Shown: positions 5,501 through 38,509, numbered from the stretch's first letter. The stretch: 56,565 nucleotides of DNA from Prorocentrum cordatum (GCA_963575745.1 CAUYUJ010000085.1:62001-118565); one strand, 5' to 3'. Numbers and translations are program-made. Notes: generated by a model not told the origin, from the letters alone.

Positions 5501-5510
5501 GCATGCGCAG

Positions 5511-11693: not shown

Positions 11694-11852
11694 GGAGTGG
11701 CCCTGGGTAGGATTGACCTTTGGTGCGCGGCTTGCGGAGGGCAGCAAGGGGACCAAACACACCCGCGCAAGACGCTACTGTCGCACTGCACTCGGCGATC
11801 GGGAGACCCCAGTGCGCCCGCACCAAAGGTCACTCCGGCGAAGGGTCACTCC
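11694..11852. mobile_element. ~160 bp MITE, family A copy 1
   Basis: TIRs ggagtggccct...tgacctttggtgcg / cgcaccaaaggtca...agggtcactcc; homologous to 38000-38160. Confidence 0.75.
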
Positions 11853-13225: not shown

Positions 13226-13743
13226 AATCCCACACGGTCCTGGGGATCGCCGTTTACTTTTGCCTGTGTCTCTTGTTCACTCCTGACTCCTGACTCGCCA
13301 AAAATCACGGCCGCAGCCCTATAGATCCCATCTTATTCTGCGCCATGTGGAGCCGGATCGATCTGTGAGGGCCCCCCGGGCCCGGAATCAGGCGACATCG
13401 CCCGTCGTCACAAAAATGCCGCGCCCAGGTCTCGAGGTCATGTCGGCGGCGAGCGAGGGAGGGAAATGAGAAGGAGAAAGCCTTCTCAGAAGGCGGCGGG
13501 ACTTTTCAGAAGCCCTCGCGCCTTCTGAGAAGTTTCTCGTCTCTTCGGGGAAGGCTTCGAAAACTTCTCAGCAGGCCCAGGGACTTCTGAGAAGGCCAGC
13601 CCCTTCTCACGTCCCGCCCTCGCTCGCCGCCGACTGCGGGGCGCCAAGGGGGATTCACGATGCAGTACATCGATGCGGACATGTGTTTTCCGGGCATTCG
13701 CGAGCAAGCACTTTGCGAGTAATGGAACGCGCTCGGTGAGTTA

Positions 13744-13957
13744 TTTGGACGCCCAAGACGGGTACGGAAGGAATTTGTACAATGCCCAACAGAACATGTT
13801 GTCCAAAATCGACAGCGGCCGCTGTTGGGCGGGCGGCATTTTGTCTTCAATGGACAACGTCCGCGGCGGCGCGGACGGCGAGTCCTGTTCAAAATGAACA
13901 GGAACTGCTGTTGGGCATCGTACCCCTTCTTTCCGTACCCATGTCGATCGTCCCGAA
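13744..13957. mobile_element. ~215 bp MITE, family B copy 1
   Basis: TIRs gggtacggaa..gtacaatgcccaaca / tgttgggcatcgtac..ttccgtaccc; second copy at 55745-55958. Confidence 0.75.
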
Positions 13958-17955: not shown

Positions 17956-18887
17956 TCATGCATGAATGACACTCAGATCTGGGTTTGGATGAATCTGTCT
18001 CTCGCGCTGGTCTTGCTTATGCTTGTTATACAGCTGGAAGAACGCGTCGATGACATTGATGGCCAAGATCAACGCAAACACCAGAGCAAATGCCCCATCC
18101 GAAGGCCTTGCTGCTGCAATGACTACCATGATCGAAAGAACGAACATATACATCCATTTCAGATACTCGCGGAACTTCCACCAAGTGACCCACGGGTGCA
18201 GGGGGTAGACGTCGTCATCCTTCACGTCTCGAAACGACGCTTCCAGACGAGACGGAAGTCTGGGAGTATCTTTGTCCCGTCTTGTCCAGAGCCATGCGGA
18301 GCTCTCATTGTTGTACTCCAAGAGTTTAGCATGAGCCACCCCGATAGCAGGGAAGTTAGTCAATGCCAGTGCCAAGACCTTGCCTGTGGCTATTTGGACA
18401 TTCTCTGGATGCGCAGCTATCTGATTCCCTGGACTCCAAACGATACAACGCAATCTCTGCAAATACGCTGCACGACTAAGTCCATACGAGTGCACTCCAA
18501 ATGTCGCGGGTATAACTGATACGATCAATCCGATGCGCTGACAGGATGAACCCCACTCGCCTCCGAGACCAACACCATCCATATACCTCGCAACCTCGTC
18601 TATGCACTCACTAGCTCCCCTCAATTCGCTGATATCTTCTTCGATGGTTTCCGATATATCAGCCCTCATGCTCCTCCCGACCGGCTGAGGTACAAGAATC
18701 AATACACCCTGCAAAAATATCGGCAGTGTTCTGAGTACCATGTCATTCAGCTTTTGGACATACGTGGCCAACGAACGGTCTCTAACACCTTCCTTTGTCA
18801 ACCTGGACATCGATATAAACATTCCTAGGTCGTAGTGGACACCCGATACGATGAAAAAGAAAGCCGAACTCATTACATAAAATGCAT
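17956..18887 (-). CDS. C-terminal part of CUB-domain multipass membrane protein (separated from its N-terminal part by insertion)
   Basis: Non-repetitive ORF with hydrophobic helices, composition matching 36600-37700; joins in frame to ...RLMSY across AAT/ATAA junctions. Confidence 0.75.
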
Positions 18888-19113
18888 AATCCGCCGGCCC
18901 CATTGTGGGGCCATCAGGCTGCGAGGATTAGGCTGCAGCGCCCTGCGCCAATTTCAGTTGCCATTCTCCAATGGTACACTCCTGCTTCCTGTTTCCGACT
19001 GTAAGTTGTTCAAGTCCGCGTGAGGGGGGGGAGCCGAAAACCACCCCGTTGCCACCCCCAAATCGCGTTGCCTGAATTCCTGGGGGGCCGTGGGACACAT
19101 AAAAATACATGAG

Positions 19114-19644
19114 ATTCGCGCTCCCGAGGCAATAATCCCTGGTAGACTCTGACACCTCGCGGCCGGCCCCGTCCAGGTCCAGGGGAGGGGGTAGGGGGAG
19201 GGGTAAACCCCTTCCCGAAAGGGAAGAAGGGCGGTGGAAGAGGAAACGCTCTAGACTACCAACGCCCAGAGGGCTGGTGTGATTACGCTGTGCTCGCGCC
19301 CCCGAGGTCACGATCCTTTGCAAGTTACTCCACATTCTCTCCCCCGAAACCACGACCCCTTGCAACATACACCGTCTCCGCGTCCCCGAGGCCACGATCT
19401 CCCACAAATAACCCTACATTCGCGCCTCTGGGGGCCACGAGAATTACGCGACATTCGCTCTCCCGACGCCACGATCCTTCGTAAATTACTCCACGCTCGC
19501 GTCCCCGAGGCCACGATCCCTCGCAAATTGCGCTGCGTTCGCGTCCCCTTGTAAAACAAGCCATATTCGCACCCCCGAGGCCACGATCTTCCGCAATTTA
19601 CATAATTAACTGTCGCGCCTCTGGGGCCACGATCCATAGTAAAT
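19114..19644. repeat. ~42 bp degenerate tandem array, left part
   Basis: Units tcgcg(t/c)ccccgaggccacgatcc...aaatt; interrupted by a short reverse-orientation element end at ~19150-19281. Confidence 0.85.
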
Positions 19645-19814
19645 CCCACCAGCCCTCTGGGCGTTGGTGGTCTAGAGCGTTTCCTCTTCCACCTCCCTTC
19701 TTCCTTTTTTCGGGAAAGGGTTTAACACTGTTCCCTACTAATCAAAGTGAGGGGGCCGAACGGCCATTCACTGTCCTTGGGTGCGTGGCTGAAGTGGGTT
19801 TCCGCGGTGCGGAT

Positions 19815-19875
19815 TCTTGTTGTTGTTGGTTGTTGTTGTTGTTTGTTGTTGTTGTTGTTGTTGGTGGTGTTGTCG

Positions 19876-19912
<37 letters not shown>

Positions 19913-20760
19913 GGTTGTGGTTGTTGTTGTTGTCGTGTTCCTGTTGTTGTTGTTGTTGTTGTGTTGCCGTCGTCCCACCCGCAACCCGCCCTGCGACCCA
20001 CCCCGGGACCCACCCCGCGACCCACCCCGCGACCCATCCGCGACCCGCCCGCGACCCACCCCGCGACCCACCCCGCGACCCACCCCGCGACCCATCCCGC
20101 GACCCACCCGCGACCCACCCGCGACCCACCCGCGATCCACCCCGCGACCCACCCCGCGACCCACCCCGCGACCCACCCCCCGCGACCCACCCGCGACCCA
20201 CCCGCGACCCACCCCGCGACCCGCCCGCGGCCCACCCCGCGACCCACCCGCGACCCACCCGCGACCCACCCGCGACCCACCCGCAACCCACCCGCGACCC
20301 ACCCCGCGACCCACCCGCGACCCACCTTCGACCCAAACCACGTTCAAGGTACAAACCACCATTTTCGGCGCCTGCGGCGGGTTTTTTTCTTGCACTCCTT
20401 CCAGGTGGAGAGCCCGCGACCCACCCCACGACCAACCCGCGACCCAAACCACGTTCACGGTACAAAACACATTTTTCGGCGCCTGCGGTGGGCATCTTTT
20501 GCATTCGTTTAGGGTGGAGAGCCCGCGGCCCACCCGCGACCACGTTCAGGGCACAAACCAAATTATTCGGCGCATGCGGCGGGCATCTTTTGCATTCGTT
20601 CCCGGTGGAGAATCCGCGGCCCACCCGCGATCCAAACCGCGTTCAGTGTACAAACCCATTCTTTTGGCGCCTGCGGCGGGTTGCTTTTGCATTCTTCCAG
20701 GTGGAGGTGGAGAGCCCGCGACCCACCCGCGACCCAAACCACGTTCACTGAACAAACCAA
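19815..20760. repeat. (GTT)n, 11-12 bp CGCGACCCACCC minisatellite and ~100 bp x4 repeat
   Basis: Direct reading; aaaccacgttca...ttcggcgcctgcggcggg...ggtggagagcccgcg repeated four times. Confidence 0.9.
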
Positions 20761-21599
20761 TGCCGCACAAGCGCGGCGGCGGATTGTTGCATGCCGTCTG
20801 AGCCCGCTACGACCTCTTCAAGCCCCGCGCATCCTTACCAGCCCGTCCAGCAACTTTGCCCTGGCGAGTTGCCTTGATAAGAGAAGTCGGGGAGCACAAA
20901 GTGGACAAAAGGATTATGTTGCCGTTATATTGGGAAAGGAGGGGGCGGCAAGAGGAAAAAAACAGGGGACGAGGAGGACGCGGAAGAAGAGAGGATGCAA
21001 GGATAATGTGGAAAAATATGAGGAAAAGGAGCAGGAGGACGAGGAGGGGGAGGAAGGGGAGGAGGGGGAGGAGGAGGAGGACGAGGAGGGGGAGGAGGGG
21101 GAGGAGGGGGACGAGGATGATGATGGACGAGAATGGGAGGACGACGGTCGACGCCGATGAGGGGGAGGACGACCATGGGAGGACGATGATGGAAGGACGA
21201 GGGGGGGAGAGGGAGGACGAGGAAGAAAAGGAGGAGGACGACGAGGTCGAGGAGGAGGATGACGATGACGATGAGGACGAGGACGAGGACGAGGAGGAGG
21301 AGGAAAGCGCCATCGACAAGGAAGGTAATTAGGGGCCACGAGGTCCGCCGGCTCGACGACGCCCGCGTCGCCCGCGCCCGCCCCCTCACTCTTATCCGCA
21401 ATTGCGGGGTGCTACGTAAACACCCCCTCCCCCAAGCGACTGGTAGCCAACCAGGAACCATGAGGACACCCTCCCACCATCCCTCCAAACAAAAACCATA
21501 CAACACACACACACTCTGCCTCCAAATTCGGAGCATGGGCAGCCAACCCGAGGCGGCCTCCCCCCTCCATCCCTGACAACAACCTGTACAGATTACACT

Positions 21600-21901
21600 T
21601 GGCGGCGACGGCGGCTGCGGCGGTTGCGGCGGCGGCGGCGGCTGCGGCGGCTGCGGCGGCGGCGGCGGCGGCGGTGGCGACGCCGGCGGCGGGGGCGGCG
21701 GCGGCGGCGGCGGCGGCGGCGGCTGCGGCGGCGGCGCGGCGGCGGCGCGGCGGCGGTGGCGGCGGCGGCGGCGGTGGCGGTGGCGGCAGCGGCTGCGGCG
21801 GCAGCGGCTGTGGCTGCGGCGGCGGCGATTTGGCAGCGGGGGCGGCGGCAGCGGAGGCGGCGGCGGCGGCGGGCGGCGCGGCGGCGGCGGCGGCGGCGGC
21901 G

Positions 21902-21971
<70 letters not shown>

Positions 21972-21974
21972 GCA

Positions 21975-22008
<34 letters not shown>

Positions 22009-22010
22009 AT
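21600..22010. repeat. (GGC)n microsatellite
   Basis: Direct reading. Confidence 0.95.
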
Positions 22011-24212
22011 TGGCCCCCAGTAGCTGCCCATCCAAAGACGACTGCTGAATATGCTGAGGCTCGGGCTAGACTCGGGTGCTACGTATGTGTTGGGAGGGCG
22101 GGTGGGAGTGTGCGAGACGGCTTGCGGGCGGGGAGGGAGCCTTGACCCCTCCCCCACCCCCACCCCTGGACCTGGACGAGGCCGGTCGCGAGGTGTCCGA
22201 AGGTACTTGTTCGCCCAAAACGGCCCCAAGAGGGCCTCAGAGAGCCCACGATGGCGTCCAAGATCGCTCAAGATAGCGCGAGATGCCTCGAGATGGCCCC
22301 CAAGATGCTCCAAGACGCCCCAAGACTGCTCCAAGACGGCTCTAAGTTGCCAAAAGAGCTCCCCAATGATGCCCCCAAGATGCCAAAGCCTTCCAAATTG
22401 AGATAATCAGTGTGTTTGGGTTTCTCGCCTTTTCGCTTCCGATGGCCATTCGAAGCAGATAGCTCCAAGATGGCCCAAGAAAGCTCGAAGAGGGGCCCAA
22501 GGGAACCCAAGAGGGCTCCCGAGGGGAGAGGCTGATGAAGGGAGCCACATTATTTGAGCGTTGTCGCTTCCGATGGCCATCCGAGGCCTCAAGATGGTTC
22601 CCAGATGGCCCAAGAGGGCTCCAAGAGCGCTCCTAAGGCTCCCAAGAGCGCTTCATGAGGGCCCGAGGGGGCGCCCAGGAGCCCCAGGAGGCCCCAACAG
22701 GCGTCCAAGAGGCGTCCAAGAGGCTCCCAAGAGACCCCCAAGAAACCCCAAGAAACCCTGCGAGGCAACGGAAACGTTCCAAGAGGCGCCCGGGACCACC
22801 AAGAGGCCCCCAAGACGCTCCAGCAGGCCTCCACTGGGGGACCCTTCCTCTGTGTGCTGCCCACATCCCTGATCGAGGCAAATCCTCTGAGCATCGTTTC
22901 TGGATGGGCTGGTAGGGTTACTTTTGTGTTGCCAGCCGCAGGCGAGCGCGCCGACGGCGTGTCAAGGTCCGGGCGGGCCGCGCGAGGTCCTAAATTACCT
23001 AGCAGGAGCAGGCCTACCGCCGCAACTCAGGCCGAGACCAGGAAGGGGCCGAGGGGGTGGGGGGCAGTGGGCTGCAGGTTGCCACTGGCCTCAAACGTGC
23101 ACCGTGCTGGAAACGCGCTGCTGACTGCCAGGGGCTGCTGACTGCCAGGGGCTGCAGGCTGCCGTATGTGAGTTGAACTGCAAGGACTGGACAACCTCTG
23201 CAACTGAGAGGCTGCCAGGGTGGCCCGAACCGTAAGGCCTGACCCACCAAGTAAACGAACTGAGTGCGCGTGAATTGACCAACCGAAGTTGGAGCGCAGC
23301 CAAAATGGCGCGCAGTAGCACCAAGATGTGACCAGGGTGACGGCAGACAGGTGTACGGACTGCCCAAGATGCCCACAGTGGTCCAGCAGCAGGGCTGGTG
23401 GGGTTACTTTTTTTGATTAGCGGCCCGCAAGGAAAAGTCCACAGGGCGGGGTCACCGAGGCTGGGGCACAGCGCAAGATAATTAGCGCGAGAACGCGCGG
23501 ACCATGCAAAACCACTGGGCCGATGCCAGCGGGGGAGAAGCTGCCACAGGTGGACAACCGAAGATTATTTGCAAAATCACTGGGCAGATGCCAGCGGGGG
23601 AGAAGCTGCCACCGGTGGACAACAAAAGAACACAAGCCAGACCCGCAGGTGGGGAAACCTGGCCGGTGACCGGAAGAAAGAGCGCGAAACGGCAGGCGGC
23701 CACAAAGGGCGCGGCAGACAGGGGGGGGGGGAGGAAAGGAGAACAGGAGGCCTATAGCGCTGCGAACTCAATCACGTTGCACCCAGTGCGCAGACGCCAT
23801 CGAGCATGGCGATCACTCCCGACATCAACAATGGGGGGAAGCCACTTGGCACACAGCTAGACTTCCACTGGTGAAGCACGAGGAAGGGCCTTCCAATAGC
23901 CTCTGCACCACGGCCCGCACTCACACGGGCAGATGCCTGGGTGGGGTTATTTCAGCCGACCGCAGGCGCAGGAACCCACAAGGTGCCGCGGGAACCAATG
24001 CGCAGTGACGTGCCCCTCGAACCCAAGAGGTGGCACGAATCAGTGGCCAGAGCCATCCACTGCGTCAGGGACCGATGGGGCGATGCCTACGGCAAAACGG
24101 CCGGGTCCCCCGCGGGCCGGCAACGCGGCCAAGACCTTGGGGGGATAAACTCAGTCGACCACACGGGCTACAGCCCACGATGGCTGGTGGGGTTACGCGA
24201 AGCGTCTAGAAT

Positions 24213-24745
24213 TGAGCCACAGTTGCGCCCCCGAGGCAACGATCCTTCTTAAAATCATGCAGCAGTCGCGTCCCCGAGGCCAGCAACCCTCGCAAAGTAT
24301 GCGGCTCTTGCGCCGCCAGGGCAACAATTTCGCAAATTACTCGCTATTCGCGTCCCCGAGGCCTTTCACCCTTACAAATTGCGCAATTCTTGCGCCCCCG
24401 AGGCAAGACATCTTCTTCAATTACTCAAGTCGTGCGTCCCCGAGGGGACAAACCCTTGTAAATTATACCAGGTTCGCGTCCCCGAAGCCAGAATCCTGAG
24501 CAAATTCCCAACATTCGCGCCCACGAGGCCACAAACCCTCGCAAAGTGCTAGATAGTCGCGTCCCCGAAGCCAGAACCCCGTCGTATGTTACTCAATGTT
24601 CGCGCCCCCGAGGCCACAAACCCTAGCAAAGTGCTCAATGCTTGCGTCCCCGAGGCAACAAACTCTCACGAACTATGCAAGCAAGATGCGCGTCCACGTG
24701 GCCATAAACCTTCGCAAATTCGGAAATGTTCGCATTGCCGAGGCC
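24213..24745. repeat. ~42 bp degenerate tandem array, right part
   Basis: About 12 units of cgcgtccccgaggc...aaccct.gcaaa. Confidence 0.85.
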
Positions 24746-26369
24746 AAGAATGTTCCAAGGCGCCCGAAGATGATTCCAAGACAGCCCAAAAGGGCCCGAA
24801 GCGGCCCCAAGACCGCCACAAGAGGCCTCCTGGGAGAGCCCCAGGAGGCCAACATCGTCGATATTACATACTGTGTTTGAAGGAGTGTGGGGTTCTCGCA
24901 TGTTCGGCTTCCCGACGCTCGAAGATGGCTTAAGAAGCTTCCAAGACAGCCGAAGACGCTTCCAAGAGGGCCCCAAGACGGCCCAAGATGGCTCCAAGAT
25001 GGCCCAAGAAGCGTTCAGAGAAGCCCCGAGAAGCCCCCAGGAGGCCCCAAGAGGCCCCAAGAAGCGCCCAAGACGCGCCAAAGTGGCCTCAAGAGCTCCC
25101 TCTCAACCTCTTCCTCCGCCTCCTCCTGATCTTCCCCGCCATCCTCCCCCAAATGTTCCCTGAAGGGTTTCCACAACGGCTGGGGGAACACATGGTCCGA
25201 TAGCTTGGGCTCTTGCCACAATGCTCGGCCACATGGGCGATTCTAGAAGGCAAGGGGCGGCGGTGATTCGCAGTAGGCATCTTCGATCTGCCGCCCACTG
25301 TTGATTCATCACAGGGATGCCTGGCGTGCTGGATCCTTTCGGTTTTGGTTTTGGTACTATTTCCACAAGCACTCTCCCCTGGGGTTCCGGCCCAGCCCGC
25401 TGGCCACCCGGAAGGACCTAAAAGGGATCGCAAGACCGGGTTGCAAAGGGCTTTCTTCTCCATGCGGTTCCGAGATGGCCCACGATGGGCTCCAAGACGG
25501 CTACGATGGCCCTCGAGTTTGTCAAGATGGTCCAAGATGACCTCCAAGACGCCCCGACAAGGCTCACGTTGCCTCCAAGTCCGCCCAAGAAGCTTCGAAA
25601 ACGGTCCAAGCGGGCCCAAAGAGGCCCCCCAAGAGGCCCCCAAGACGGCCCAAGAGGCCTCCAAGAGGGCCTCCAGGAAGGCCCGAAGAGGCCAAGTTCA
25701 TTGATTGCCCTTAGGTCTCAGGTGCTTAAAGGATGTTGGCATTTGCTCTTGTTAGGCGTGCCGACGGCCCGAGACGGCCCAAGAGCTCCAAAAGATCGCC
25801 CCAAGATCGCCCAAGAGGCCTCCAAGACGGCCCCAGAACGGCCTCAGAGGCCCAAGACCGCCCCAGGAGGGCTCCAAGACGGACCGAGAGGCCTGGCCTC
25901 CAAGACGGCCCTGAAGCGCCCCAAGCGGGCCCCCAGTCTGCCCGGAGAGGCCCCCAAGTCCGACGGCGCCAGACGGGCCAGGAGCCAACCAGACCGGCCC
26001 AAGATGGCTCTAAGATGGCCCAAGACGGCCCAAGAGGTGCCCAAGAGGCCTCCAAGTCGGCACAAGAGGCCTCCGAGAGGTCCTCCAGGAGGCCCCGAAG
26101 AGGCCAACATCACTGATGCCCCCCAGGTTGTTGAAGGATTGTGGCAATTGCTCTCGCTATGCCTTCCGACGGCCCAAGAGGGCCCAAGAGGCCACCAACA
26201 TCGCCCCAGAGCGCCCAAGAGGCCCCCAAGATGGCCCCAGAACGGCCCATGTTGCCCCCAAGACGGCCCCAAGAGGGCCCAAAGACGGCCCAAGTGGCCT
26301 CCAACACGCCCAAGAAAGTCCCCAAGACGGCCCTGGAGCATTCCAAAAGGGCTCCTAGTCGACACAGAC

Positions 26370-26469
26370 TGCTATGGCCCCGCTAGACCCACTGCCCTGA
26401 GATCTGCTCTCCTCCCCTCTATATCTCTATTGTTCTCTCTCTCTCTCGTTCTCTCTTTCTTTTTTTCTT

Positions 26470-26505
<36 letters not shown>

Positions 26506-26960
26506 CTCTCTCGAAATGGCAACGCGTTGGTATCACTGATGCTGGTGGCAAGCGCGAGGGTGCTCGCGCGATTGTGATGAAAGGGAGCTGTTACGGTTGC
26601 GGGCCAGCTTGCAATCCTGCGCCTCGCAGGCGCACGCCAGGAGTCCAGCGACAGTGCGTCGCTGCAAAGGCTTGCGCCAAGTGCCAAGACGTGTTCGGTA
26701 GCAACGTCTTGGGAAAACTTGAAAATACATGATGAGACCCTGGGGCCTGAGGGCTCTACGAGGGCTCTTGGGGATACCACTCAGCATGGCTAGGCTGCAA
26801 ACGAAGTTTGGAACACGATGCCCCGTGAAACGCGGATATGTGTAAACGGGGGCGCCCAGTGAGCCCAGACATGCACGCAGGTGAAAGCTCACACTCGGCC
26901 TCCAGAGGCCATCTGCCGCAAGAAGGCTCTAGTCAGGCAGGCTCCGGGCTGCGAGTTACA
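26370..26960 (-). repeat. 3' LTR
   Basis: Colinear homology with 34914-35458 (ccactgccctgagat, gctgttacggttgcgggccagct, gtgaaacgcggatat, aggctctagtcaggcaggctc). Confidence 0.88.
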
Positions 26961-27995
26961 TGCCCAAACATAGGAATCGATGTTGCGACATCGAGGCGCG
27001 CCGCTGACCCCTGCATTCACTGAAAGCACAAAGCGGGGGCGCGGTCTTACCGAACCCCGCAAGGCCACGTGTCCGGCAGGGCACAACTGCTCGCAGGGAT
27101 TGTCGCGGGCGAAGTAGACGAAGACCTCCAGCATCGCATCTCCGTCATCATCGGACACGGGTTTGCCATGGTCGAGCTTGTCCATGCCTGCGGTCTGGCA
27201 TTTCCTGGCACTGCGTTGGAAAGGATCACCCACCAATCTCCAGCGCTGCCCTGCTCTGAAAAAACTTGGTCCAACCGTCGGCTAGCACAGCGTAGTTGCT
27301 GTGGACCCACCGCATATGGAGGGCCGTCAGCTCCAATTGCTGTCGGATGTCAAGACACTCGATCTTCGTTGTTTCATCGCGCAGCCCAAGGCCAGCCGAC
27401 TCACACTTCTCGATCGCGCAATAGCCCGATGTCCCGCTTCAGGCTGAGATGGCATCGTTTTCGCGCTGCTCGGAAGTCCACTGGGCCGCACACTAGCTTG
27501 CGTATGCAAAACCGCGGGTTGCTGATCTCGTCCAAAGTCCCAGTCATCATCTGGACCTCCGAAATCGCACTGCTTCTGGCCACGCGAAGCAACTTGCAGG
27601 ATCTGTATGAAATAGGCGCCGCAGTCTCCGCCGAACCGCTGAGTAAGGACAACGGGGCCAGAACGGTTGTCCGCCTTGGGACTCGCCGGTCGCTCTCACA
27701 GCCCAGGCCGCGTCACCCCAGCCAACCGCGGCGATCTGGTCGACGGCCGGAATGAGCGCGACCACGTCGGCAGTGTTGCGCATGGTGCAGATCAGCGCGT
27801 TAATCGTCTGGATGGTTGAGACCGCGGCCGTCGGAGTCCTGGCATGGAGCAAAGATACTTATGCACTGAACCACGGGGCCGACTGCTGCGCGCGCCATCC
27901 GAGTGCACCAAGTCGGCCTCGCAGGCCCGATCGCTCCTTACCCGAACCCCCCCCCGTAGGTCTTCGGCCACGTCGTACCTTGTTGGGTTCCACGT

Positions 27996-28640
27996 TCAGG
28001 CTGTAGTTGTCCTGAGCGGGGCTGCAACTGAAATCGTCAGACTGTCGGATACTGATGCCGCGCTGGACGAAGGCGCGGCTCTCCCAGGGCGTCCACTCTT
28101 CTGGATATCCTTACGCTTCTCGAGGGAGGCCAGGCTCGTCTGGTCAGCAGCGATCATCATATCATCGACGCGTAGGATTACCATGCCAACCAGCTTGTCA
28201 ACGTCGCAGAAAACCCAGAAGCAGGGCTCGCACTGAGCAGCCTCCAGCTCGAGCTTCTTGAGCGCGTCTTGGAAGTGGAGCCACCACTTGCGAAGAGCGT
28301 GTAAGAATCCGCACACTGGCTTGAACAACTGCAAGGCCCGGTAGTCGTCCACGCCGAATGCCTGGCGGACATATCCCGGAGGGGCCGCGTAGAGATTACT
28401 CTTCTCCTTGTCGGCCTCCCCCTGGAGGAAGGCCGTCACTGCGTCTGCTTTCTCCAGCTTCCACTTGCGTCAGGCTGCCATGGCCAATAGAAAATGACGC
28501 GCCCGTCGCGAAGCGACGGGGGGCTCCGTCTGGAGGCGGAGCAAGCCGGGGTCGATGAAGCCGAGCATGACCAGTCTAGCCGCGCCTCGGAGAACGCCGC
28601 CTTGCCCCAAGCCGAGCCTCGTTCCAAGTCGAGCCTTGGC
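27996..28640 (-). pseudogene. Copia reverse transcriptase fragments
   Basis: ARLVMLGFIDP, TAFLQG, L.KPVCG, EPCFW, ILRVDDMM. Confidence 0.88.
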
Positions 28641-29859
28641 CCAGCAAGCCGGGGTCGACGAAGTCGAGCCGTGTTCCAGGTCGGCACGAAGCGGCAGCGA
28701 AGGAGGAGCGCTCCTGCTGAGCCTCGAGTAGCAGCTTCTTCTCCTCTGCGGTCGCCTTCTGGATGGAGACCCCCACTCGGCCCTCGCGGGCCTCAGATGC
28801 CACGAAGTTGCTGGGGTCGCACATGTACGCCATGAGCGCGTGCTCGCATTTGAAGGGGATGTCCAGAACGATGAGCTCATTATCCTCCTTGGCCTCATCG
28901 CACTACTGGGCGCTGTAAGCGCGCGCGTAGTCCCCGTAGAAATCTCCCTCCTGCAAGAAGTACAAGAAAGCCACCAGGGTGGTAGCGTCGACCAGTTGCG
29001 TCCTGACAGGTGGCCCTGGCGACCCCGGGGCTTGCCGATGACGCTTGTTGTTGGCATCAGGCGCCGTCGCCTCTTTCAGGTCCTCCTCGTCCGTGTCCAC
29101 GGTAATACGGCGCCGGGAAGCGTGACCCCCCTGGTCGTCTATTGGAGGGGCCTCCACGATGATCTCTTCTTCAGGCACTCCAGCTTTTTCGCCGGGCTGA
29201 CGAAGGCCCGGTGGAACCTCTGGCGTTGCTGGATGGATAACAAGGTCTGGATCCGCGCTCGCGGCGAGCCAAGGGCTTCCCTTACGTCGCACCCTCCTAG
29301 GCAGTTTCGGCCCGAATATAAGAAGTCCTTCGAGTCCAGTAGTGGCCGAAGGCAAGCTGCCACCTCCGCCACCTCCTGGCCCAAGGCGCTGAGGTTCTCC
29401 CGGGGGGGGGGCCGTAGATCGTTGTCCTCGTCGATTGCCCAAGGCCCGCTCGGATTGCCCGCGAGGGCGCGGGCGCTGACCGACTCGCCGTCGCCCGTTG
29501 CAAGGTCCTCGCCTGTCGGCGGGGGCCCGTTGGACAGGTCAATCATCTCGTTGGCGTCGAGATGCTTCTGGACCTCTCCAAAGGCCCATGTCCCAGGATG
29601 CTCGCGGCGCGAGCGCAGGGGATCCATCGCCTCCTCCGACGGGGTGGCCGGTCGAAGCTGCTCTGGAGCCACCAGGTAGGAGGCGACCAGCCAACGCGAT
29701 GTTGACCAAGGCCCCTGGCAGGCCAGGTCGATATCCAGAGCTCGCAGGCTCGCGACTCAGAACTGGCCCAGGGCCGCACCAGTGACATCGCCCCAATATG
29801 GAGCGAGACTGCCCTTTCTTCCGCCGGGCTCCTGGTGGGAGCCGCCTGCGCACGAAGAC

Positions 29860-30740
29860 CAGGTCACCAGTCTCGTACTTTCTGAAGGACCTGGACCTGG
29901 GCGCCTCGGCTCGCTCGTCGCGGTCCGAAAAATTCCGCCTGGATGTGTGCCAGTCTCGACAGTCGTCGTACTTGAGCGTCTCTGCTGAAGGTGCCGTCCA
30001 ACAGTTCGGTGCTGACGAGAGGCAGGTTGCGCGGCTCGTCGGACAAGTTGACGGCGGTGCCCGTCGGCGTCCGACCCGCGCACCGTTGAAGCGGGCTGAA
30101 ACCGTCGATCCGGATCAGGTCGTTCCTCGCCGCGATCTCGCCAGTCGGCACCTTGGCAGAGACCGTCTCAGCCAAGGCGTCGAGTGCCTCCTTGAAAGCC
30201 TCGGTCGCGCGCTCGATCTTGCCGATCCGCCAGCGGGCGTCGGCGGCTAAGGAGAGGCAGTAGTTGCCCAGACCCTCGGCCCACTCCCGGGTCGCGGCGC
30301 ATGGCCTTTGGGCGCCCCATCCAGGGGAAGCCACTTTTTAGCGAAGATATGTCGGGGGTCTCCTGCGCGCACTTGTCGAGTCTGTCCTGGAGCCCCCCTC
30401 TCGTCGATCAGCCTCGCGTAGAGGATGCCGGAGCCAGCGCCAAGGACCGACAGCGCCATCGCGCTCGCGTTCGTACCGCGTCGGGTCCACGAGATGGCCT
30501 CGACGAGCACTTCGTGACCGTTCTGGGGCTGCTCGACCGATGACGCAGGGGGCCGCGTCGTTGGTCGGTGAGCATCGTAGATGCCGCACTTAAAGTTCAG
30601 GGCCAACAGCAGCACCTTTGGTCTAGCGCCTCGATCTCGACGGTATCGAAGTAGGTGAGCCCGAGGTAGGTGTCCATGGTTGGCATGGATCAACCTGACG
30701 TCGCTCCCGAGCTTATGGATCGTCTCGTTGGCGAGGTCGT
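29860..30740 (-). pseudogene. Integrase fragments (HHCC zinc-binding region and core)
   Basis: VRLIHANHGH...LLRY..DRGA..V...A.NFKC; WRIGKIER. Confidence 0.75.
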
Positions 30741-30840
30741 GGATGCCTCTGCCGTCCTTCCGTCGTCGATCGGCAGGCGGCTGCCGCGTGGCAGCCAGGC
30801 AGTGGCAGCGCACAACCTCATCCTCGAAGTAGTTGGGGTT

Positions 30841-31420
30841 CTAGCTCTTCGTCAGAGCTCTGAGGGTCTTGCAGCGCAGCGTCTTAGGGTAGTTTCCCGG
30901 CGCATCCTTGCGCGGGCTGCTCTCGATCTCCTTGTGATAATGGTCTCCGCGGCACTGCGCGGGCTGGAGAGTAATCCAGATCCCCTTGTCCTTCGTCTGG
31001 AACTTCCAGCGCTTCCTCATGAGCCCCCCAGCATTTGGAGCTCCGAGTCCACGCGAGAAGCCGTCAACAATGACCTTGGATGGGAGTGCGCTGTGAAGAC
31101 CCTTCCAGCAGGTCCTCTGCCGCGAACGGTCGTCGTGGGAGTGCTCTGCGAGGGCCAAGCCGCGCGCGTTTAGAGCCCGATGTTCGCGTGCCATTACTTA
31201 AGATCACGTGGCGCTTAGCCCTCTTCTTGCGAAGGTAGCTATCCTGCTGCTCGTTGCGCTGGTTGACGTGCTGCGTAATCGACCAAGGCCCGTCCGCAGG
31301 GTGGAGCGCTGACGCAGATCTCTGGGCGCTTCTCGCCAAGTAGGAACTTCGCCTTGCGATCGCTCGCAACGGTAGCCTTTCTTGTTGCACACCTGGCCAA
31401 GGTTCGAGCCCAGGTGGGCG
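30841..31420 (-). pseudogene. Degenerate C5-MTase-like domain inside Copia pol
   Basis: VDG..RGL.AP..GGLMRKRWKFQT, CRGDHYHKEIE, GNYPKTL resemble the C-terminal half of the MTase-like domain at 6590-7021; catalytic motifs eroded. Confidence 0.55.
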
Positions 31421-33289
31421 CGGGCCTCCACCGCCGCCAAGCGGCCGGAAGACGCGAGGGAGCACATGGCCCCGAACAGAGCCGATCTTGTCGAGCGGGC
31501 AGCTGCCCAGATAGCCCGACGCCGATGACCCGTCAAAGGGCGGCTGCCGTCGCCGAGCCAGCGCGTCCCCCTGCACCGCGCGTCGCCCAGGCCTCCTGAG
31601 TCGCGCGCGCTCGGCGGCGCCACCCGCGGGGCCTCACCTTCGCGATTGGCTCGCGCATTGCGACGCCCCCTCTGCAAGCAACGAGGACGCTGGCACTCCT
31701 GAGCGCAATGGGCCGCGATGGCCGGCTCCGCGACTGCGGAAGCCGCCTCCATCTCTTTGATCTCCACCCCCTTCTTGATCTTGATCGCCGGGGCCGCCGC
31801 CCCGCGCTGCTCGATTACGGGCGCGATGATGCGGTCGATCACCTCCTCCTTGTTCCCTGCATGGACCAGCCCCCAGCTCCTGCGCAGGGGCCTGAGGTGG
31901 TTGGGCATCGTGACGATGCTGCGCTGCTCGCGAATCTGCTCCGAGCTGAGCGCCGCCGACGCAGTCAGCTCCGCAACTTGGTCAAGAAATCTGACTTTGC
32001 GCTCTCGATGGCGTCGCGCAACTTCCTGTTCTGCTGGATCGGCGCGGCCGAGGCGGCCGACTCCTTTGCCTCCCGGCGCGACGGACTGCGAGTCTCGAGC
32101 TTCGCCTGATGTCCAAGCTCCGCCGGTCAGGTCGGGCACCGAGTGGGCAGCAGCTGCACCAGCAGGTCGACGCTGCCCAGCTTCCACTTCTCGAGATACA
32201 CTGTCTTCAAGAAGGTCTCTAGCATGAGTCGCGCCGGCGGCGCGTCGCCCTCGATAGCAGCTTCTCGCAGACCCACATCTCCCAGAAAGGTAGGTGCTCC
32301 AGTAAGAACATCTCCGACAGCCGCGTCATGTCCCTGCCCTGCTCTGGGCCCGCAGGTGGCAGCCCCCCCCGCGCCCGCGGCTCCATCTCCTCGTTGTCTC
32401 TCCACTTGCTGGCCCTCTGCTTTGAAGCATATCGTCTCGCGGTTGAGGCTCGCGCAGATATGGGAGATATGAAGACTGCTGAGAACTGAGCTCCTCGCTC
32501 GACTCGTTTGCGCCGAAACTGGCGATGGAACATGATGGCGCCGCGGCCCGGTGCTTGATCAGCGCGGGGACCTCGGGAACGACCTCAGGAGGTTGACCAG
32601 GCCATGGCCTTTAGCGGGCCGGAGTTGGTGACAATGATGCCTGGGGAGCAGGTGAAAATCATGTCGCCGCAGGCGCGGGTAATGATGACATGCCCGCGGG
32701 CGCGGGCAACGACGATGTCCCCGCAGCTGTAGGCGCTGACGATGCCCCTGTGGCTGCGGGCAACGATGTCCGGGGGCCTGGCGGGGCCCCAATTGCGGGG
32801 GTCTCATCTGGGAGCTCTTGGGGGGCATCGGCAGGAGCACCTGGGCGTTCGCTGTCAATCGGCTGCTTGTTCTCGCATTTTCCCTCCTGCACCGGAGCAG
32901 TCTCGGGCGTCGGGGGCGCGCGCCCCCAGCTGAGGATGGCCACGAAGCGGCAAGTCGGCATGCGATGCAAGTGGCTGCGCAGGGTGGCCGCTCGGAAGGG
33001 CGAGCAGCCGCGCTCGGCGCCCGAGCTTCTCGAAGTAAGCAGCGCGCGCCGTGCAGTCGATCGCGGCTCCCGGGCGGCTCGAGACACCACCCCAACTCAG
33101 CAGCGGAGCGTCGGCGCCCAGGATGTCGGTCTCGAGCTCGCCCTCCGCGCCGGCTATCTCCAGCGGAAAGGTGGCCTTGCCGTTGCAGGTCTCGGAGTTG
33201 ACGTCGCCGAAGATTTAAGGTTGACTTCTGGCCGACGATAATATTGACGTTCCTGCCTGTCTGCTCATAGACGGTGCCTGGCAGCTTCT

Positions 33290-33350
33290 CGGCGGCCTAT
33301 ATGCCCGCGATGCTGGAGGCAGCGCCGATGTCCAGAATGCCGGAGCCCTC
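33290..33350 (-). pseudogene. Aspartic protease active-site remnant
   Basis: Manual translation GSGILDIGAASSIAG (LD(T/S)GA-like). Confidence 0.65.
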
Positions 33351-34099
33351 GGAGCCAGACTGCTTCACGCCCGTGCGCATCCACTCTTCGCCCTGCTCCA
33401 AGGTCGCCCAGACGGGCGAGGTCACCAGACGATCAGAACGCGGATCCCGGTCGAGGTATCGTAGATCGCCTCGTCGCGCCCGGTCAGATGGGCCCCCATC
33501 TCCGCGCCTCGCTGAGCGCTGAAGAAGTCGAAGCTCGAGAAAGCCTTCTTCGGTCGATCTCGACCCCCTCGGCTGCCGGCGGATGAAACTCGGTCTCGGT
33601 GGTCTTTCGTATTACCTCCACATTTCAAGCGCAGGCCCTTCTATGCGGGACGCGAGCGGTCACTACTCTTGGAACTCGGTCGATCACGTCGCTGTCCGTC
33701 GACGCGCCCTCGCCCCGTGGAAAACCAAGAGCCTCGGGATGCCATTCGAGGTCCATGGGGCTTCTCGTCGCGCGGGCTGCGCATCCACTGGGAAGGAATT
33801 CCTCGCCGTCTTCACTCGACGAAGCAGGTCCCGAGCCTGCTCGAAGCTGCGCTGCTGAGCTGCGAAGGCGGTCTCGGCCTCCTCTATCGCTGGAGCAACG
33901 TAGAGGGGCTCCTCGGGATCTTTGGATCTTCCTCCGGCTGGGTATCGTAGGACGCGTTCGAATCGTCGTAGTAGCCATAGCCATGCTGAACTTCATCTTC
34001 GTCATCTTCCTGATCCCCGCCGGCCCGGACCCTGCCACGATCCGGGCGGCAGTGATCTTTGCCCTGGTTATTGTCGCGATTCGTCGAGTCGCCATCTGG

Positions 34100-34850
34100 C
34101 CAGGATACTCGAAACTGCTCCGATGCTCTCGCAGTCGAGGTTACCCTCCACAACACTGATCACTGCTGCACGCTCGGTCGGGGACAGTCTGGATCTTTGC
34201 AGCAGTAACCACCCACGGAGCTGGTCGATGGGGAACCGCCCGGTTAAAATCGGTTCCGAAATCGGCATGCTCCAGAATTTCCTGGAGCCCCGTCCTGATG
34301 AAGCTCCAGAGCTTGAGGTTCAGCTCTCTCGCTTTGTCGGCAGGAGTCCTCGGGGCCCTCGAGCAAGATCTCATGGAGGAATCAATGCATCTCTGTGTAG
34401 ACGTCGTTCCAATCCGTCGCCCGTTTGGCGAGACGCTGATGTCTCTGCTTCTCGAAATATTCGGTGGCAAATCCGTTGACCAAGTCGTGATAGGTTTCGT
34501 AATCGCGGCGGACAAAGGACGGCATAACAAGAGTCGCGTCGTAGATCGAATACCAATCTGGCCAAATACTTCCCAGCGTCCTGGATGGGCTGCGCTCCGA
34601 GCATTGCGCGGACGTGTCTGGGCAACTCAATGGCGCCATCGTCCTTCTAGATGCGGTCCCAATCAACGTGCATGGCGGCCTGTCTAGCTCGTCGCCCGAG
34701 TCGTCTCCAGAGTCTGTGGCCGAACACATTTCGTTTGTCACGCCTGGTCCCGCGGATAGAGGCCTTGGCGTCTCGCTCGTAATCGTTCACCTTGGTGAAG
34801 TCTCCGTTCCACTCCAATACAATGTCATCTCCAATGCTGCGTTTCGCCAT
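34100..34850 (-). pseudogene. gag remnant
   Basis: MAKRSIGDDIVLEWNGDF...; DQLRGWLLLQRSRLSPTERAAV; directly downstream of the PBS. Confidence 0.7.
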
Positions 34851-34901
34851 TGTGTCGTAGCACGCTGTGCTCCGTGAATATGTTGCCCATGGAGCTTCAC
34901 A

Positions 34902-34913
34902 GCTCCGCAACCA
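34902..34913 (-). promoter_or_regulatory. Primer-binding-site-like sequence TGGTTGCGGAGC
   Basis: Starts with TGG immediately inside the 5' LTR; resembles initiator-Met-type PBS. Confidence 0.6.
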
Positions 34914-35458
34914 TGCAATGGCGCTGCTAGAACCACTGCCCTGAGATGAATCCCTGGATATTGGTCTCTCTCTTCTCTCTCTCTCTCTCGCCTCTCGAGG
35001 TTTCGATAACACTGATGTTGGTGTCGGGGATGTACGGGCAATGGGAAGCACGAGGCTGCTCGCGCGATGGTGATGAAAAGGGGCTGTTACGGTTGCGGGC
35101 CAGCTCGCAATCCTGCGCGTCACAGGCGCGCACCATGAATCCAGCGACACTCTGTCGCTGCAAAGGCTTGAACCAAGGCGGTTTCAAAAGAAACGTCCTG
35201 GGGACACTTGAAACATTTATAGAATGAGCCATCTGGGGCCCGAGGGCTCTACGAGGGTTCTCGGGGAGACCATCAAGCATGCCTAAACTACACACGGAAT
35301 TCGAAACACGATGCGCCGTGAAACGCGGATATATGTAAACCGGGGTCCCTTGTGAGCGCAGACATGTATGCAGGTGTAAGCTCACACTCGGCATCTAGAG
35401 GCCATCTGTTGTGTAGTAAGGAGGCTCTAGTCAGGCAGGCTCTGGGCTGTACGTTGCA
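34914..35458 (-). repeat. 5' LTR
   Basis: Homologous to 26370-26960; TG..CA ends. Confidence 0.88.
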
Positions 35459-36595
35459 CAGCGAGGCCCCCGAAACAATTCCCGACGGAACCAGACGGGC
35501 CAGGAGCCCACCAAGACGGCCCCAAATGGCTCTAAGATGGCCCAAGACGGCTCCCAAGAGGCCTCCAAAACGGCCCACGAGGCTCTCCAGGAAGGCCCGA
35601 AGATGCCAAATGCATCGATTTCCCTCCGGTTTTCGGGAGATATGTTTGCTTCGGTCGGCCTTCCGACGGCCCGAGACGGCCCAAGAGCCCCGAAAGATCG
35701 CCCAAGAGGCCTCCAGGACGGCCCCAGAACAGCCCAAGAAGCCTCCAAGACGGCCCCAAGAGGGCCGCAGAAGGCCCAAAAGGCCTCCAAGACGCCCAAG
35801 ATGGCCTCAAAGACGTCCCTCGAGTCAAGTCGGCCCAGAAAAGCCCCAAAGACGGCTTCCGACGGCGTCGGACGTGCCAGGAATGCCCTGAGACCCCGAG
35901 AAGCCCCCAAAGGCCCTCAAAATGCACAACGAGGCCCCCCAAGATGCCTCCAAGAGGCTCTCAGGAAACTCCCAGGAGGAGGCGCCAAGAGTGCCCCCAG
36001 AGGCTCCCAAGATGCTTCCTCCTCCTCCTCCTGCTCCTCCTCCTCCTCCTCCTCCTCCTCCTCCTCCTCCTCCTTCTATTCTTCCTCCTCCTCCTCCTCC
36101 TCCTCCTCCTCCTTCTATCCTCCTCCTTCTGCTCCTCCTCCTCCTCCTTCTCCTCCTCCTCCTGATCTTCCCCGCCGTCCTCCCCGACGTGTTCCCCGAA
36201 GGGTTCCCACAACTGTTGGGGGAACAAATGGCCTGGTGTGTTGGCAGAGCACTGGCCACAACGCTCAGACGCATGGGCGATTCCAAGCCGCTTGCTCCCC
36301 CAAGCGTTCCCCGAAGGCTTTCCCTACCGACTCGGGGAACAATTGGCCCGATAGCTTGGCCAAGCTCTAGCCCAGCTGTCGGCCACATCAGCGCTTCCAC
36401 AAGGGCAGGGCGCGGCGGCGATTCGCCGTGCGCGTCGTCGATAACGCCAACGTCTCAATACGCGCTGATGGTTCCAATCCGCCCCCGCATGATGTTCGCA
36501 GATGCGCCGAGACAGCGCCGAGACGCACCGACGCGACCCTGATCTACCCCATTAGGATAGAGAGGGGGCCGGCGGCAGGGGGCGAAGCCCTTACG

Positions 36596-37983
36596 AATAA
36601 GACATGAGCCGTGCAATCAGCCATGAGGCTGCATATCCAAGCTCAATTCCGTGGGGGTGGACCACTTCGACCTCGCAATATTTAGAATCGTGTGACATCA
36701 TGCCGGGGAATCCAGAGACTATGCCCTGCCCAACAAGTTGCAGAGTGTAGAAGTTCAACTTGAGGATGATCAATACAACCAGGGCGTAAAACTTCTGCTT
36801 CAGAAAACCCATATTGCCAGCAGTCTCATCTGCTGGCGCCTCTTCCAACCGCTTCTGCCGATCGTACAAAGGAGATGCAACGTCGGTCGTGCACCATACG
36901 AACTGGACATATGTTGCAGAAAGGCAAACGACAGAATAGGCAGACCACGCGGCAGGATTGCATGCCACGGGCCAATCCAAGCATGCACGAACCCACTTAA
37001 GAATCGGACGGAACAGCTCGAACGCTGGGGATACGATGCTCATGACCGCGAAATCGCCCTTCATGCCCTGCATGACCGCATACACTGGCGGAGAATCACT
37101 TGAGTCGCGCTGGGAGGGAAGCAGATCAAATCCACTCTCGATCAGCATTGCGTCCACCAAGAACTGGACGTAGACTCCAACACTTATCACGGTGGCAATT
37201 ACAAGAAGAGCCACTGTCCGATAAGTCCACTTGACGAATGGGTGCCTCAAGAACTGCCACAGCTTCCCCTCGTACTTCACGGCAGGAACTTGACCTCCTG
37301 AGACTCTTGTTTCATTCGTAGCTCGCTCTGCGACGGACTCCATCAGTGTGAGGAGCATGAAGAATAGCGACATCATCAACAAACCGAACAGATAAGTGAT
37401 TAGGAAGGTGACCGCCGCAAACAAGATAATAATGAAAGTCAGCATTGTGAATGATACAATTCCCCACCACAAGATGCAATATCCAACGATGTTGAATGGA
37501 TGTTCACTGTCTCCCGCGGCCTTGCCACCGTGCAACAACATATACGGGAAATGTGCGATGCGAACTGCGAGGCTGCTCAACATCTCGGTTTTACATACTT
37601 TGTGGGCCAAAATGCATAGTACCGTAGATACCAGAGGGGCCACAGCAAGGAATGGGACAAGCCACACAACCATCACCGTCATGAAGGCGTAAATGAACAT
37701 CTCGAATCCTCGGGCTTCGATGGGCGGCTCAGCGGCCCGCACGGCATCGGCCTCCGACGTGCGGCAAATCTTCCACCCTGTAGATTCGACGCCGTCGTCA
37801 GAGCTCCACAGGATCGCCCCGGTTGCCACGACGTCCTGCGGGCCCCGCGAGAAGTGGCCCGAATAGCGCTTCCCGTTCACGGTGAGGACGTCGTAGTTCC
37901 TCTCGCTGCGGAAGCGGATGGCGCTGACGCTCTCCTGCGCCCACGGGTTCACGGAGATCTCGCAGCTCTGCTGGCCACCGTAC
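36596..37983 (-). CDS. CUB-domain multipass membrane protein, exon 2 (cut by insertion)
   Basis: YGGQQSCEI..F.SERNYDVLTVNG.RYSG..WSSD..GWKIC followed by many hydrophobic helices. Confidence 0.85.
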
Positions 37984-38354
37984 CTCGGCTACACGCAGGA
38001 GAGCGACCCTGGGCAAGAGTGACCTGTGGTGCGCGGCCCAGTGTGGGGGGCCCTTCGGGGACACCGCCGGGCGCGCAGGCCGCTGCTGTCGCATCGTGCT
38101 TGGCGATCGGGGTGCCCCACTGGGCCCGCACCAGAGGTCACTCCAGCGAAGGGTCACTCTGACACGTCGTTCATTTCTCATCGTGCTCGTTTCTGCTTGT
38201 GCTCGTGTCTCTGCTTGTTCCTGGCCCCCTGGTGGCCAGGAAGAGGCCCAGGACAGAGGCATCAGACATGAGAGGATCCTGGCCTCCTAAGATACCCCCG
38301 AGAGGCCTCCCGAAGAAGCAGACGTGAGCAACGTGTGCGCGTGCAGCCGCGCAC
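37984..38354 (-). other. Spliceosomal intron (GT...AG|G), 371 bp
   Basis: Splicing CG|GTGCGC...CCGAG|GTAC gives continuous CUB motif CVQSPNYPGRYGGQQSC in frame. Confidence 0.85.
38000..38160. mobile_element. MITE family A copy 2 (intronic)
   Basis: agagcgaccct..gagtgacctgtggtgcg / cgcaccagaggtcactc..agggtcactct. Confidence 0.75.
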
Positions 38355-38509
38355 CGTCCCGGGTAGTTCGGGCTCTGCACGCAGGCCCCGACCTGCTCGC
38401 ACGGCCCCCGCACCGCCGCGACCCACGAGGCGGCGGCCGCCGGGCCGCGGAGGAGGGCGGCCGCCGCCCAGGCCCAGGGGCGGCACGGCCACGGCGCGGC
38501 CCGCCGCAT
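38355..38509 (-). CDS. CUB-domain membrane protein, exon 1 (signal peptide plus CUB start)
   Basis: MRRAAPWPCRPWAWAAAALLRGPAAAASW...GPCEQVGACVQSPNYPG. Confidence 0.82.

Follow-up and report, generated by a model that had tools for sequence, protein, structure and literature searches.

A 17.7-kb interruption in a membrane-protein gene of Prorocentrum cordatum, bounded by short direct and inverted repeats, as a candidate intron with non-canonical ends

The DNA analyzed here is a 56,565-nt stretch of the Prorocentrum cordatum genome (GCA_963575745.1 CAUYUJ010000085.1:62001-118565), referred to below as the window; all coordinates are those of the whole window. Its G+C content is 50-74%, and simple repeats are abundant. 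On the minus strand lie two open reading frames (ORFs), designated ORF A and ORF B, which on the evidence of their sequences are parts of one gene separated by 17.7 kb of other DNA. The initial annotation regarded the locus as a host membrane-protein gene split in frame by an insertion, and proposed either that the insert is removed from RNA or that the whole composite moved to its present site recently. We find that a joined form of the mRNA exists, and consider it probable that the interruption is a very long intron excised from RNA at non-canonical ends. The gene model given below draws on P0003, a 531-residue NCBI entry ('unnamed protein product [Prorocentrum cordatum]') that matches ORF A at 100%, and on two ORFs derived from transcriptomes, P0012 (830 aa) and P0015 (382 aa).

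38355..38509, minus strand: exon 1, which opens with the start codon (38509-38507) and a signal-peptide-like N-terminus and includes the beginning of the extracellular domain (..SPNYPG); matched at 100% by P0003 residues 1-52
37984..38354, minus strand: intron 1, 371 nt, GT..AG followed by G, with a 3-nt boundary repeat, GGT
36597..37983, minus strand: exon 2 (ORF A), encoding the remainder of the N-terminal domain and five hydrophobic segments, ending ...WLIARLMSY; its boundary slides within 36595-36598
18889..36596, minus strand: the interruption, proposed intron 2, 17,708 nt, missing from transcript ORFs P0012 and P0015
17956..18888, minus strand: exon 3 (ORF B), from YAFYV.. to ..SVIHA and the stop codon at 17956-17958; 310/310 residues identical to P0012

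The start codon at 38509 and the stop codon at 17956-17958 are the gene limits that had been proposed initially, and both were retained. The window copy has the N-terminus MRRAAPWPCRPW, with Met at a position where P0012 has Leu. Intron 1 is an ordinary, textbook dinoflagellate intron, and its splice is confirmed by gene model P0003 and transcript ORF P0012, both of which read SPNYPGRYGGQQ. Measured from stop to stop, the ORF A frame spans 36591-37988 (465 codons, C-terminal ...WLIARLMSYS followed by a stop) and the ORF B frame spans 17956-18927 (323 codons, containing ...ADYAFYVMSSAFFF / ...GPADYAFYVMSSAFFF...), in agreement with the earlier description of two stop-free halves on the same strand. 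Two such frames matching transcript ORFs at 100% are far beyond chance. Deletion of 17,708 nt leaves an open 2,475-nt coding sequence (CDS) for 824 aa with the junction ...ASWLIARLMSYYAFYVMSSAFFF..., and deletions of 18888-36595, 18889-36596, 18890-36597 or 18891-36598 are equivalent because a 3-nt repeat is present at both edges. The removal suggested in the initial annotation (18891-36595 plus one AAT, giving a protein of ~820 aa) is the same 17,708-nt removal, and its join is matched by P0012 and P0015.

Assignment of the two ORFs to one gene is indicated by a distant homolog. A full HMMER scan using ORF B as the query yielded two relatives only, including P0005, a 345-aa protein from a 1.3-kb JGI contig. 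Residues 3-59 of P0005 correspond to residues 408-464 of ORF A (...ARVMSF versus ...ARLMSY), and residues 60-341 correspond to residues 14-321 of ORF B (YAAYVV versus YAFYVM). The alignment, at 28-47% identity and reaching both edges, crosses the junction between A and B gap-free, with zero leftover residues on either side. The ORFs were thus found neither to belong to unrelated proteins nor to be separated by further exons, since P0005 is gap-free and P0012 and P0015 carry the join. Searches with ORF A and ORF B for longer homologous proteins gave no result, and the full-length form surfaced via members of a sequence cluster only. In a metagenome scan with P0015, none of 76 pattern matches was confirmed.

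The cluster in question groups P0003 with sequences at 90% identity, and all 10 of its members were examined. Two of them, P0012 and P0015, contain the exact join, ...RLMSYYAFYVMSS... within ...WLIARLMSYYAFYVMSS.... The product of the conceptual CDS from the window agrees with P0015 in all 382 residues and, counted from a common anchor, with P0012 in 805 of 806; P0012 differs from the window in having another N-terminus and one Leu-for-Met change. Two other members, taken from a transcriptome-based collection, match the window without a difference: P0013, which terminates at ...MSYS-stop, and P0014, whose N-terminus, MGPADYAF..., starts within the 3' end of the interruption. Because these two hold both ends of the interruption fused to exons, RNA that retains the interruption also exists. 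Unspliced forms like these would be expected if a long intron were removed slowly or in part of the RNA.

Six cluster members are genome models, located on contigs of 118,565 (two models), 100,288, 88,976, 59,734 and 56,629 bp. All five that reach the junction read ...MSYS, on at least four contigs; the sixth, P0011, is partial and ends earlier. After ...MSYS a stop follows in P0007 and P0010, and unrelated exons follow in P0003, P0008 and P0009. P0007 and P0008 show three residue differences each relative to the window, so the junction is common to copies that had already diverged. The search for an empty copy that the initial annotation had recommended returned no genome-annotated uninterrupted or full-length protein among the 10 cluster members, though an 830-aa transcript ORF is present there, and no paralog of the gene inside the window. 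The public gene models of the P0003 family are truncated. The P. cordatum annotation pipeline accepted GT, GC and GA donors only (PMC10666404), which would explain why evidence from joined transcripts went unused; pipelines restricted to GT/GC/GA-AG would cut the gene after ...MSYS.

The foreign C-terminal exons of three models map to 53063-53200 (P0008, 97.8%), 54499-54762 (P0009, 97.7%) and 54783-54830 (P0003, 100%), all on the minus strand. They lie upstream of the window's ORF A on that strand, and there is no second ORF B between the copies. Past the right end of the window there is probably at least one further copy of exon 1 and ORF A, whose GTAAGG donor the models splice to AG|G acceptors at these sites. 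The last exon of P0003 (IEEEDRGGGFVRSVVV), at 54783-54880 (minus strand), is read from a 13-nt tandem repeat, (GGAGGAGGATCGA)n, and looks like a prediction artifact rather than real coding sequence.

The ends of the interruption were compared on the minus strand. The upstream junction reads ...ATGTCTT[ATT]CGTAAGGG... / ...ATGTCTT[ATT]CGTAAGGGC..., and the downstream junction reads ...GGCCGGCGG[ATT]ATGCATTT. The following features are found at or near the two boundaries.

36596..36598, minus strand: upstream copy of the direct repeat ATT (AAT on the plus strand), from the junction sequence
18888..18890, minus strand: downstream copy of the direct repeat ATT, from the junction sequence
36565..36575, minus strand: 5' arm of an inverted repeat, 11 nt, CCGCCGGCCCC, starting 21 nt inside the interruption
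18891..18901, minus strand: 3' arm of the inverted repeat, 11 nt, GGGGCCGGCGG, abutting the downstream ATT
36589..36594, minus strand: donor-like GTAAGG, 2 nt past the Y codon, used in the truncated public models (..MSYS plus a foreign exon)
18869..18870, minus strand: AG that, paired with GTAAGG, gives an in-frame GT..AG removal and an 819-aa product without YAFYVM; unused in both transcript ORFs that span the join

Boundary placements that yield the observed mRNA are AT..GG, TT..GA, TC..AT and CG..TT. None of the four has GT, GC or GA at its 5' end and none has AG at its 3' end (the ends being GG, GA, AT and TT), and the boundaries of the interruption are therefore non-canonical for dinoflagellate introns. 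Recursive or nested canonical splicing is ruled out, as the first nucleotide after exon 2 is never G in the four placements. The initial annotation had pointed to a GTAAGG at 36594 and a CAG at 18919-18921 that are out of phase, and this is so: the donor falls after 2 nt of a codon and the acceptor before a whole codon. With both strands counted, the 11-mer of the inverted repeat occurs only twice in the window, at the two ends of the interruption (0.22 occurrences expected; two reached in 4 of 100 shuffles). A perfect inverted repeat of at least 11 nt between two 35-nt ends was found in 21 of 20,000 random pairs. As evidence, the inverted repeat outweighs the 3-nt direct repeat. Counted from 36596, its 5' arm occupies intron positions 22-32, just past a strict 30-nt limit.

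The interruption is filled with repeats, the most prominent of which are these.

26470..35449, minus strand: Copia-like long terminal repeat (LTR) retrotransposon, decayed and nested, recognized from its repeats and an RVT_2 remnant
24900..26400, no strand assigned: satellite-like array, with the same family again at 35450-36300
19817..22063, no strand assigned: simple and tandem repeats, comprising (TTG)n, an 11/12-nt CCCACCCGCGA array, a 91-nt array, GAG-rich tracts and (GGC)n

Taken in minus-strand order, the 5' edge consists of ~150 nt of unique sequence followed by a satellite-like array at 36.3-35.45 kb. The Copia-like element comes next. Its LTR-like direct repeats of ~490 bp (26470-26951 and 34959-35449) are 8.49 kb apart and 78% identical, and a remnant of a Copia-type reverse transcriptase lies at 27999-28469 (minus strand; RVT_2, E = 1.9e-7, 31.3 bits versus a gathering score of 31.6, profile positions 75-179 of 244). 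The old, decayed Copia described initially corresponds to this Copia-like element. Only one of the 48 minus-strand ORFs of at least 70 aa in this element has a retroelement domain; no gag, protease, integrase or RNase H was detected by Pfam in those 48 ORFs, which is consistent with heavy decay. Since the same satellite family occurs on both sides, the Copia-like element landed inside one array. Tandem repeats of 42 and 85 nt follow the array at 26.4-24.9 kb, and the 3' edge of the interruption is ~260 nt of unique sequence. An inverted pair of 67 nt (19218-19284 and 19642-19708), its arms 94% complementary and separated by 357 nt of 42-nt tandem repeats, resembles a miniature inverted-repeat transposable element or a hairpin.

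No transposase domain was found by Pfam in the interruption ORFs scanned (23 of 25 proteins of one set plus the 48 minus-strand ORFs, the plus strand being partly scanned), and Rfam gave zero matches in the whole window. The interruption fits a cut-and-paste DNA transposon poorly: the terminal inverted repeats are not flush, the extreme termini are unmatched, there is no transposase in the scanned ORFs, and the window has no other copies. Ends of the Helitron, CACTA and Harbinger types were ruled out as well, there being no TC...CTRR, no CACTA and no flush arms. In content, the interruption is an old composite of repeats, as expected of long P. cordatum introns, given that the mean intron in this species is 4.7 kb (PMC10666404). 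A long transposon-filled intron is ordinary for this genome; the oddity is the combination of boundaries that have none of the known dinoflagellate splice dinucleotides with a signature of direct and inverted repeats.

We propose that the 17,708 nt would be a very long, old intron, full of repeats and transposon remains. Its excision from the pre-mRNA would take place exactly at the 3-nt direct repeat ATT, restoring ...MSY|YAF..., and would proceed without a known dinoflagellate splice consensus. The 11-nt G+C-rich inverted repeat could pair in the RNA and so juxtapose the ends, as proposed for introner elements of Amoebophrya. The intron may have originated when a small element, of the type with terminal inverted repeats and a target-site duplication, inserted at an ATT of a continuous exon, and it may later have been swollen by satellites and the Copia-like element. 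The proposal implies that joined mRNA would be made from loci that bear the insert, such as that in the window, and that the inverted and direct repeats would take part in excision.

This reading is favored because the interruption is old (its LTR-like repeats are 22% diverged and the genes of its Copia-like element almost unrecognizable) and yet the 775 flanking codons are stop-free, match transcripts exactly and remain alignable with P0005 up to both edges. An old insert between intact ORFs means either that the gene was under selection while split, with the intervening stretch removed, or that the entire 17.7 kb arrived at once in a recent event. The intact flanking ORFs are hard to reconcile with a long-dead gene. 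The junction shared by at least five diverged copies, together with the absence of an annotated empty copy, points to an intron too. Of the two possibilities left by the initial annotation, removal from RNA is favored by the joined mRNA and by ...MSYS in all five annotated copies, and a recently moved composite is less favored. The more specific claim, that P. cordatum, a core free-living dinoflagellate, precisely excises a 17.7-kb intron that lacks GT/GC/GA..AG ends and has no end marks other than a direct repeat of 3 nt and an inverted repeat of 11 nt close by, is in our judgment evenly balanced.

The closest parallel is found in Amoebophrya A25 and A120, where non-GT-AG introns documented by RNA-seq have direct repeats over their boundaries and inverted repeats (Farhat et al. 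2021, PMC7789003). As in the introner elements described there, the interruption has ends other than GT-AG and a direct repeat of 3-5 nt over its boundaries that makes the cut ambiguous; it has an inverted repeat of 8-20 nt near its ends, which could form a hairpin that brings the exons close; it has no transposase inside (here, in the scanned ORFs); and its host is a dinoflagellate sensu lato (PMC7789003). The Amoebophrya introns are, however, validated by RNA-seq and were analyzed at 40-1000 bp (PMC7789003), whereas the window interruption, a putative intron and a candidate member of an introner family, is 17.7 kb long and contains nested repeats. Also unlike the Amoebophrya case, the host is a core free-living dinoflagellate in which only GT/GC/GA-AG introns are annotated, and the 5' arm is placed 21 nt from the boundary. 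We consider the locus a good candidate for non-canonical intron removal of the Amoebophrya kind in a core dinoflagellate.

Comparison was also made with introns of other dinoflagellates, as far as these are described in the reports cited. Great length has a precedent in Crypthecodinium cohnii, which has an intron of 26,372 bp (Mendez et al. 2015, PMC5032977). The interruption resembles the standard dinoflagellate introns with identical repeated boundaries treated in that report in being very long, in residing in a multi-copy gene and in having a short boundary repeat of which one copy is kept in the mRNA (PMC5032977). Intron 1 of the same gene fits this pattern fully (GT..AG|G, repeat GGT). 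The proposed intron 2 does not: the repeat given in PMC5032977 includes GG in every case and AGG in most, and G is the first intron nucleotide, whereas here the repeat is ATT, with no G at +1 and no terminal AG. In P. cordatum, donors are GT (24.7%), GC (51.4%) and GA (23.8%), and 79.7% of acceptors are AGG (PMC10666404, Table 2). The pattern by which introners were sought in this species asks for two features no more than 30 nt from each end, inverted repeats 8-20 nt long and direct repeats 3-5 nt long, and 2.4% of the annotated introns show it (PMC10666404). The window interruption fits it, with the 5' arm slightly past the strict 30 nt.

The interruption is further like the introner and introner-like elements reported from Symbiodiniaceae, Polarella and P. 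cordatum in that its inverted repeat reaches the 3' boundary, with short direct repeats (a target-site duplication) on either side. In published introner elements the duplication gives a GH donor and the element gives AG (bioRxiv 10.1101/2020.10.14.339549). As described, introner and introner-like elements have GH..AG sites that are supplied or recruited (for example through GHNN or AGGH duplications), are short, and form families of hundreds to thousands. The window interruption, in contrast, supplies no splice dinucleotides, is 17.7 kb long and has no other copy in the window. Euglenids, which belong to a different eukaryotic supergroup, have short nonconventional introns that are likewise without GT-AG borders and whose splice points are proposed to be juxtaposed by complementary sequences close to the two ends.

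A number of observations weigh against an intron with such ends. Taken alone, a 3-nt direct repeat is weak evidence, as a slide of at least 3 nt occurs at 6% of 200,000 random position pairs in the window. The 3' arm of the inverted repeat is flush with the boundary but the 5' arm is not, being 21 nt away. The best predicted RNA duplex between the two ends is equaled in stability by 6-14% of 3,000 random pairs, the share varying with the length taken, and a duplex of this energy is not unusual for this G+C-rich DNA. Neither 400-nt end has other copies in the 56.5-kb window besides internal satellite matches, which leaves the interruption a candidate member of a repeated introner family. A strong canonical donor, GTAAGG, lies 2 nt from the boundary and is the one chosen in public models. 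The joined mRNA is known from transcript-derived ORFs, which may stem from loci other than those bearing the insert; P0012, because its N-terminus and one residue differ, comes from another copy or strain; and the other genomic copies are known from their proteins. Core-dinoflagellate introns are described as GT/GC/GA..AG in the intron sections of the sources consulted (PMC10666404, PMC5032977, bioRxiv 10.1101/2020.10.14.339549), which gives an intron of the present kind a low prior. A literature search of incomplete coverage, with the spreadsheets of PMC10666404 outside it, returned no report of other boundaries in Prorocentrum.

The main rival holds that the window copy and the other ..MSYS copies are interrupted and non-functional, that the 17.7 kb are a block insertion (a transposon-like element that duplicated 3 nt of its target, or pre-existing repeat DNA captured as filler in a break), and that joined mRNAs come from an unannotated or unassembled uninterrupted paralog or allele. 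We regard this as unlikely, although it agrees with much of what is seen: the boundaries are not splice-like, a direct repeat with a near-terminal inverted repeat is also a signature of DNA-transposon insertion, P0012 demonstrably derives from a copy other than that in the window, the gene is multi-copy, the ORFs could be intact simply through a recent event, and the assembly is incomplete, with 61.4% BUSCO protein recovery (PMC10666404, Table 2). It requires, however, that all 17.7 kb, including the Copia-like element nested in satellite, moved at once, and neither a transposase nor flush terminal inverted repeats nor other copies were found in the scanned ORFs and the window. None of the 10 cluster members is both genome-annotated and uninterrupted despite the 830-aa transcript ORF, the junction is common to at least five annotated copies diverged by up to three residues, and P0015, P0013 and P0014 are 100% identical to the window.

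Three other explanations receive much less weight. Canonical splicing from the GTAAGG donor (36594) to the AG at 18869-18870, with the exact-join transcripts coming from other copies, would be GT..AG in phase with a single open frame, giving the 819-aa isoform, and would employ the donor used in models P0003, P0008 and P0009. We judge it very improbable, because YAFYVM is kept in both of the transcript ORFs that span the join and is conserved in P0005 as YAAYVV, and because the acceptor would be AG|T, as opposed to the AG|G present at 79.7% of P. cordatum acceptors (PMC10666404). Misassembly, that is a chimeric join of two loci, might be suspected in a large, repeat-rich genome and a window with many low-complexity tracts; it is extremely unlikely, as models from at least four contigs have the same ..MSYS-stop junction and the transcriptome-derived P0013 and P0014 independently hold both ends of the interruption fused to exons. 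Template switching classically leaves apparent 'introns' that are non-canonical and have direct repeats on both sides, and both a repeat and a possible stem are present, such that reverse transcriptase could have jumped at the 3-nt repeat, with the 11-bp stem as an aid, while copying unspliced RNA of an insert-bearing pseudogene. A repeat of 3 nt is very short for switching, the join is found in two separate transcript ORFs, one of them full length, and it restores exactly an ungapped alignment to a distant homolog; we therefore give such a cDNA artifact hardly any credence.

If an intron with non-canonical ends is the correct reading and the joined mRNA is made at the window locus, core dinoflagellates have a second definition of intron ends besides GH..AG, and a removal pathway of the Amoebophrya type would operate outside the parasitic Syndiniales as well, at a very large scale. 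Such introns would be invisible to dinoflagellate gene prediction and under-called, with at least five gene copies truncated here; the six public models of the family end prematurely or continue into unrelated exons. The locus would also be a concrete, testable case of a transposon-like insertion that was tolerated in a coding exon and then grew to 17.7 kb. Should an uninterrupted copy be the source of the mRNA instead, the locus would be no more than another interrupted paralog in a 4.7-Gb genome.

The product of the joined gene is best explained as an 824-aa orphan multi-pass membrane protein with a predicted secreted N-terminal domain. At least seven strongly hydrophobic segments of 19 residues are present. 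No protein family was obtained from Pfam, PDB sequences or the ESM Atlas; with P0012 as the query, Pfam gave no family at E <= 1, the CUB profile included, and PDB sequences gave no match of note. We take the N-terminal domain to resemble CUB in its SPNYPxxY-like motif, although the Pfam CUB test was negative. This extracellular domain is shared with the C-terminus of the cathepsin-B-like protein P0004 (E = 5e-8; 45% identity over 76 residues) and, as it recurs there, is a mobile domain that has no Pfam model. In P0004, which comes from a JGI contig outside the window and is known from environmental sequences, it is a C-terminal addition to a cathepsin-B-like peptidase (PF00112).

Other features of the window were noted in passing. 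Several long ORFs follow one another on the minus strand at 2-5524 (373, 368, 268, 382 and 484 aa); one of them has an RVT_1 match (1093-2196; E = 3.8e-5, under the gathering score), and the run probably represents a non-LTR retroelement. A 495-aa ORF at 45487-46971 (plus strand) with an RNase H domain (27.6 bits versus a Pfam cut-off of 25.8) is probably another retroelement. Within intron 1 of the gene, a 191-bp stretch (37984-38170) is 75% identical to 11679-11862, which lies at a distance of 26 kb and is oriented alike; the latter region showed no coding similarity to the gene. Finally, a 215-bp dispersed repeat occurs in direct orientation at 13743-13957 and 55744-55958, its two copies being 84% identical.

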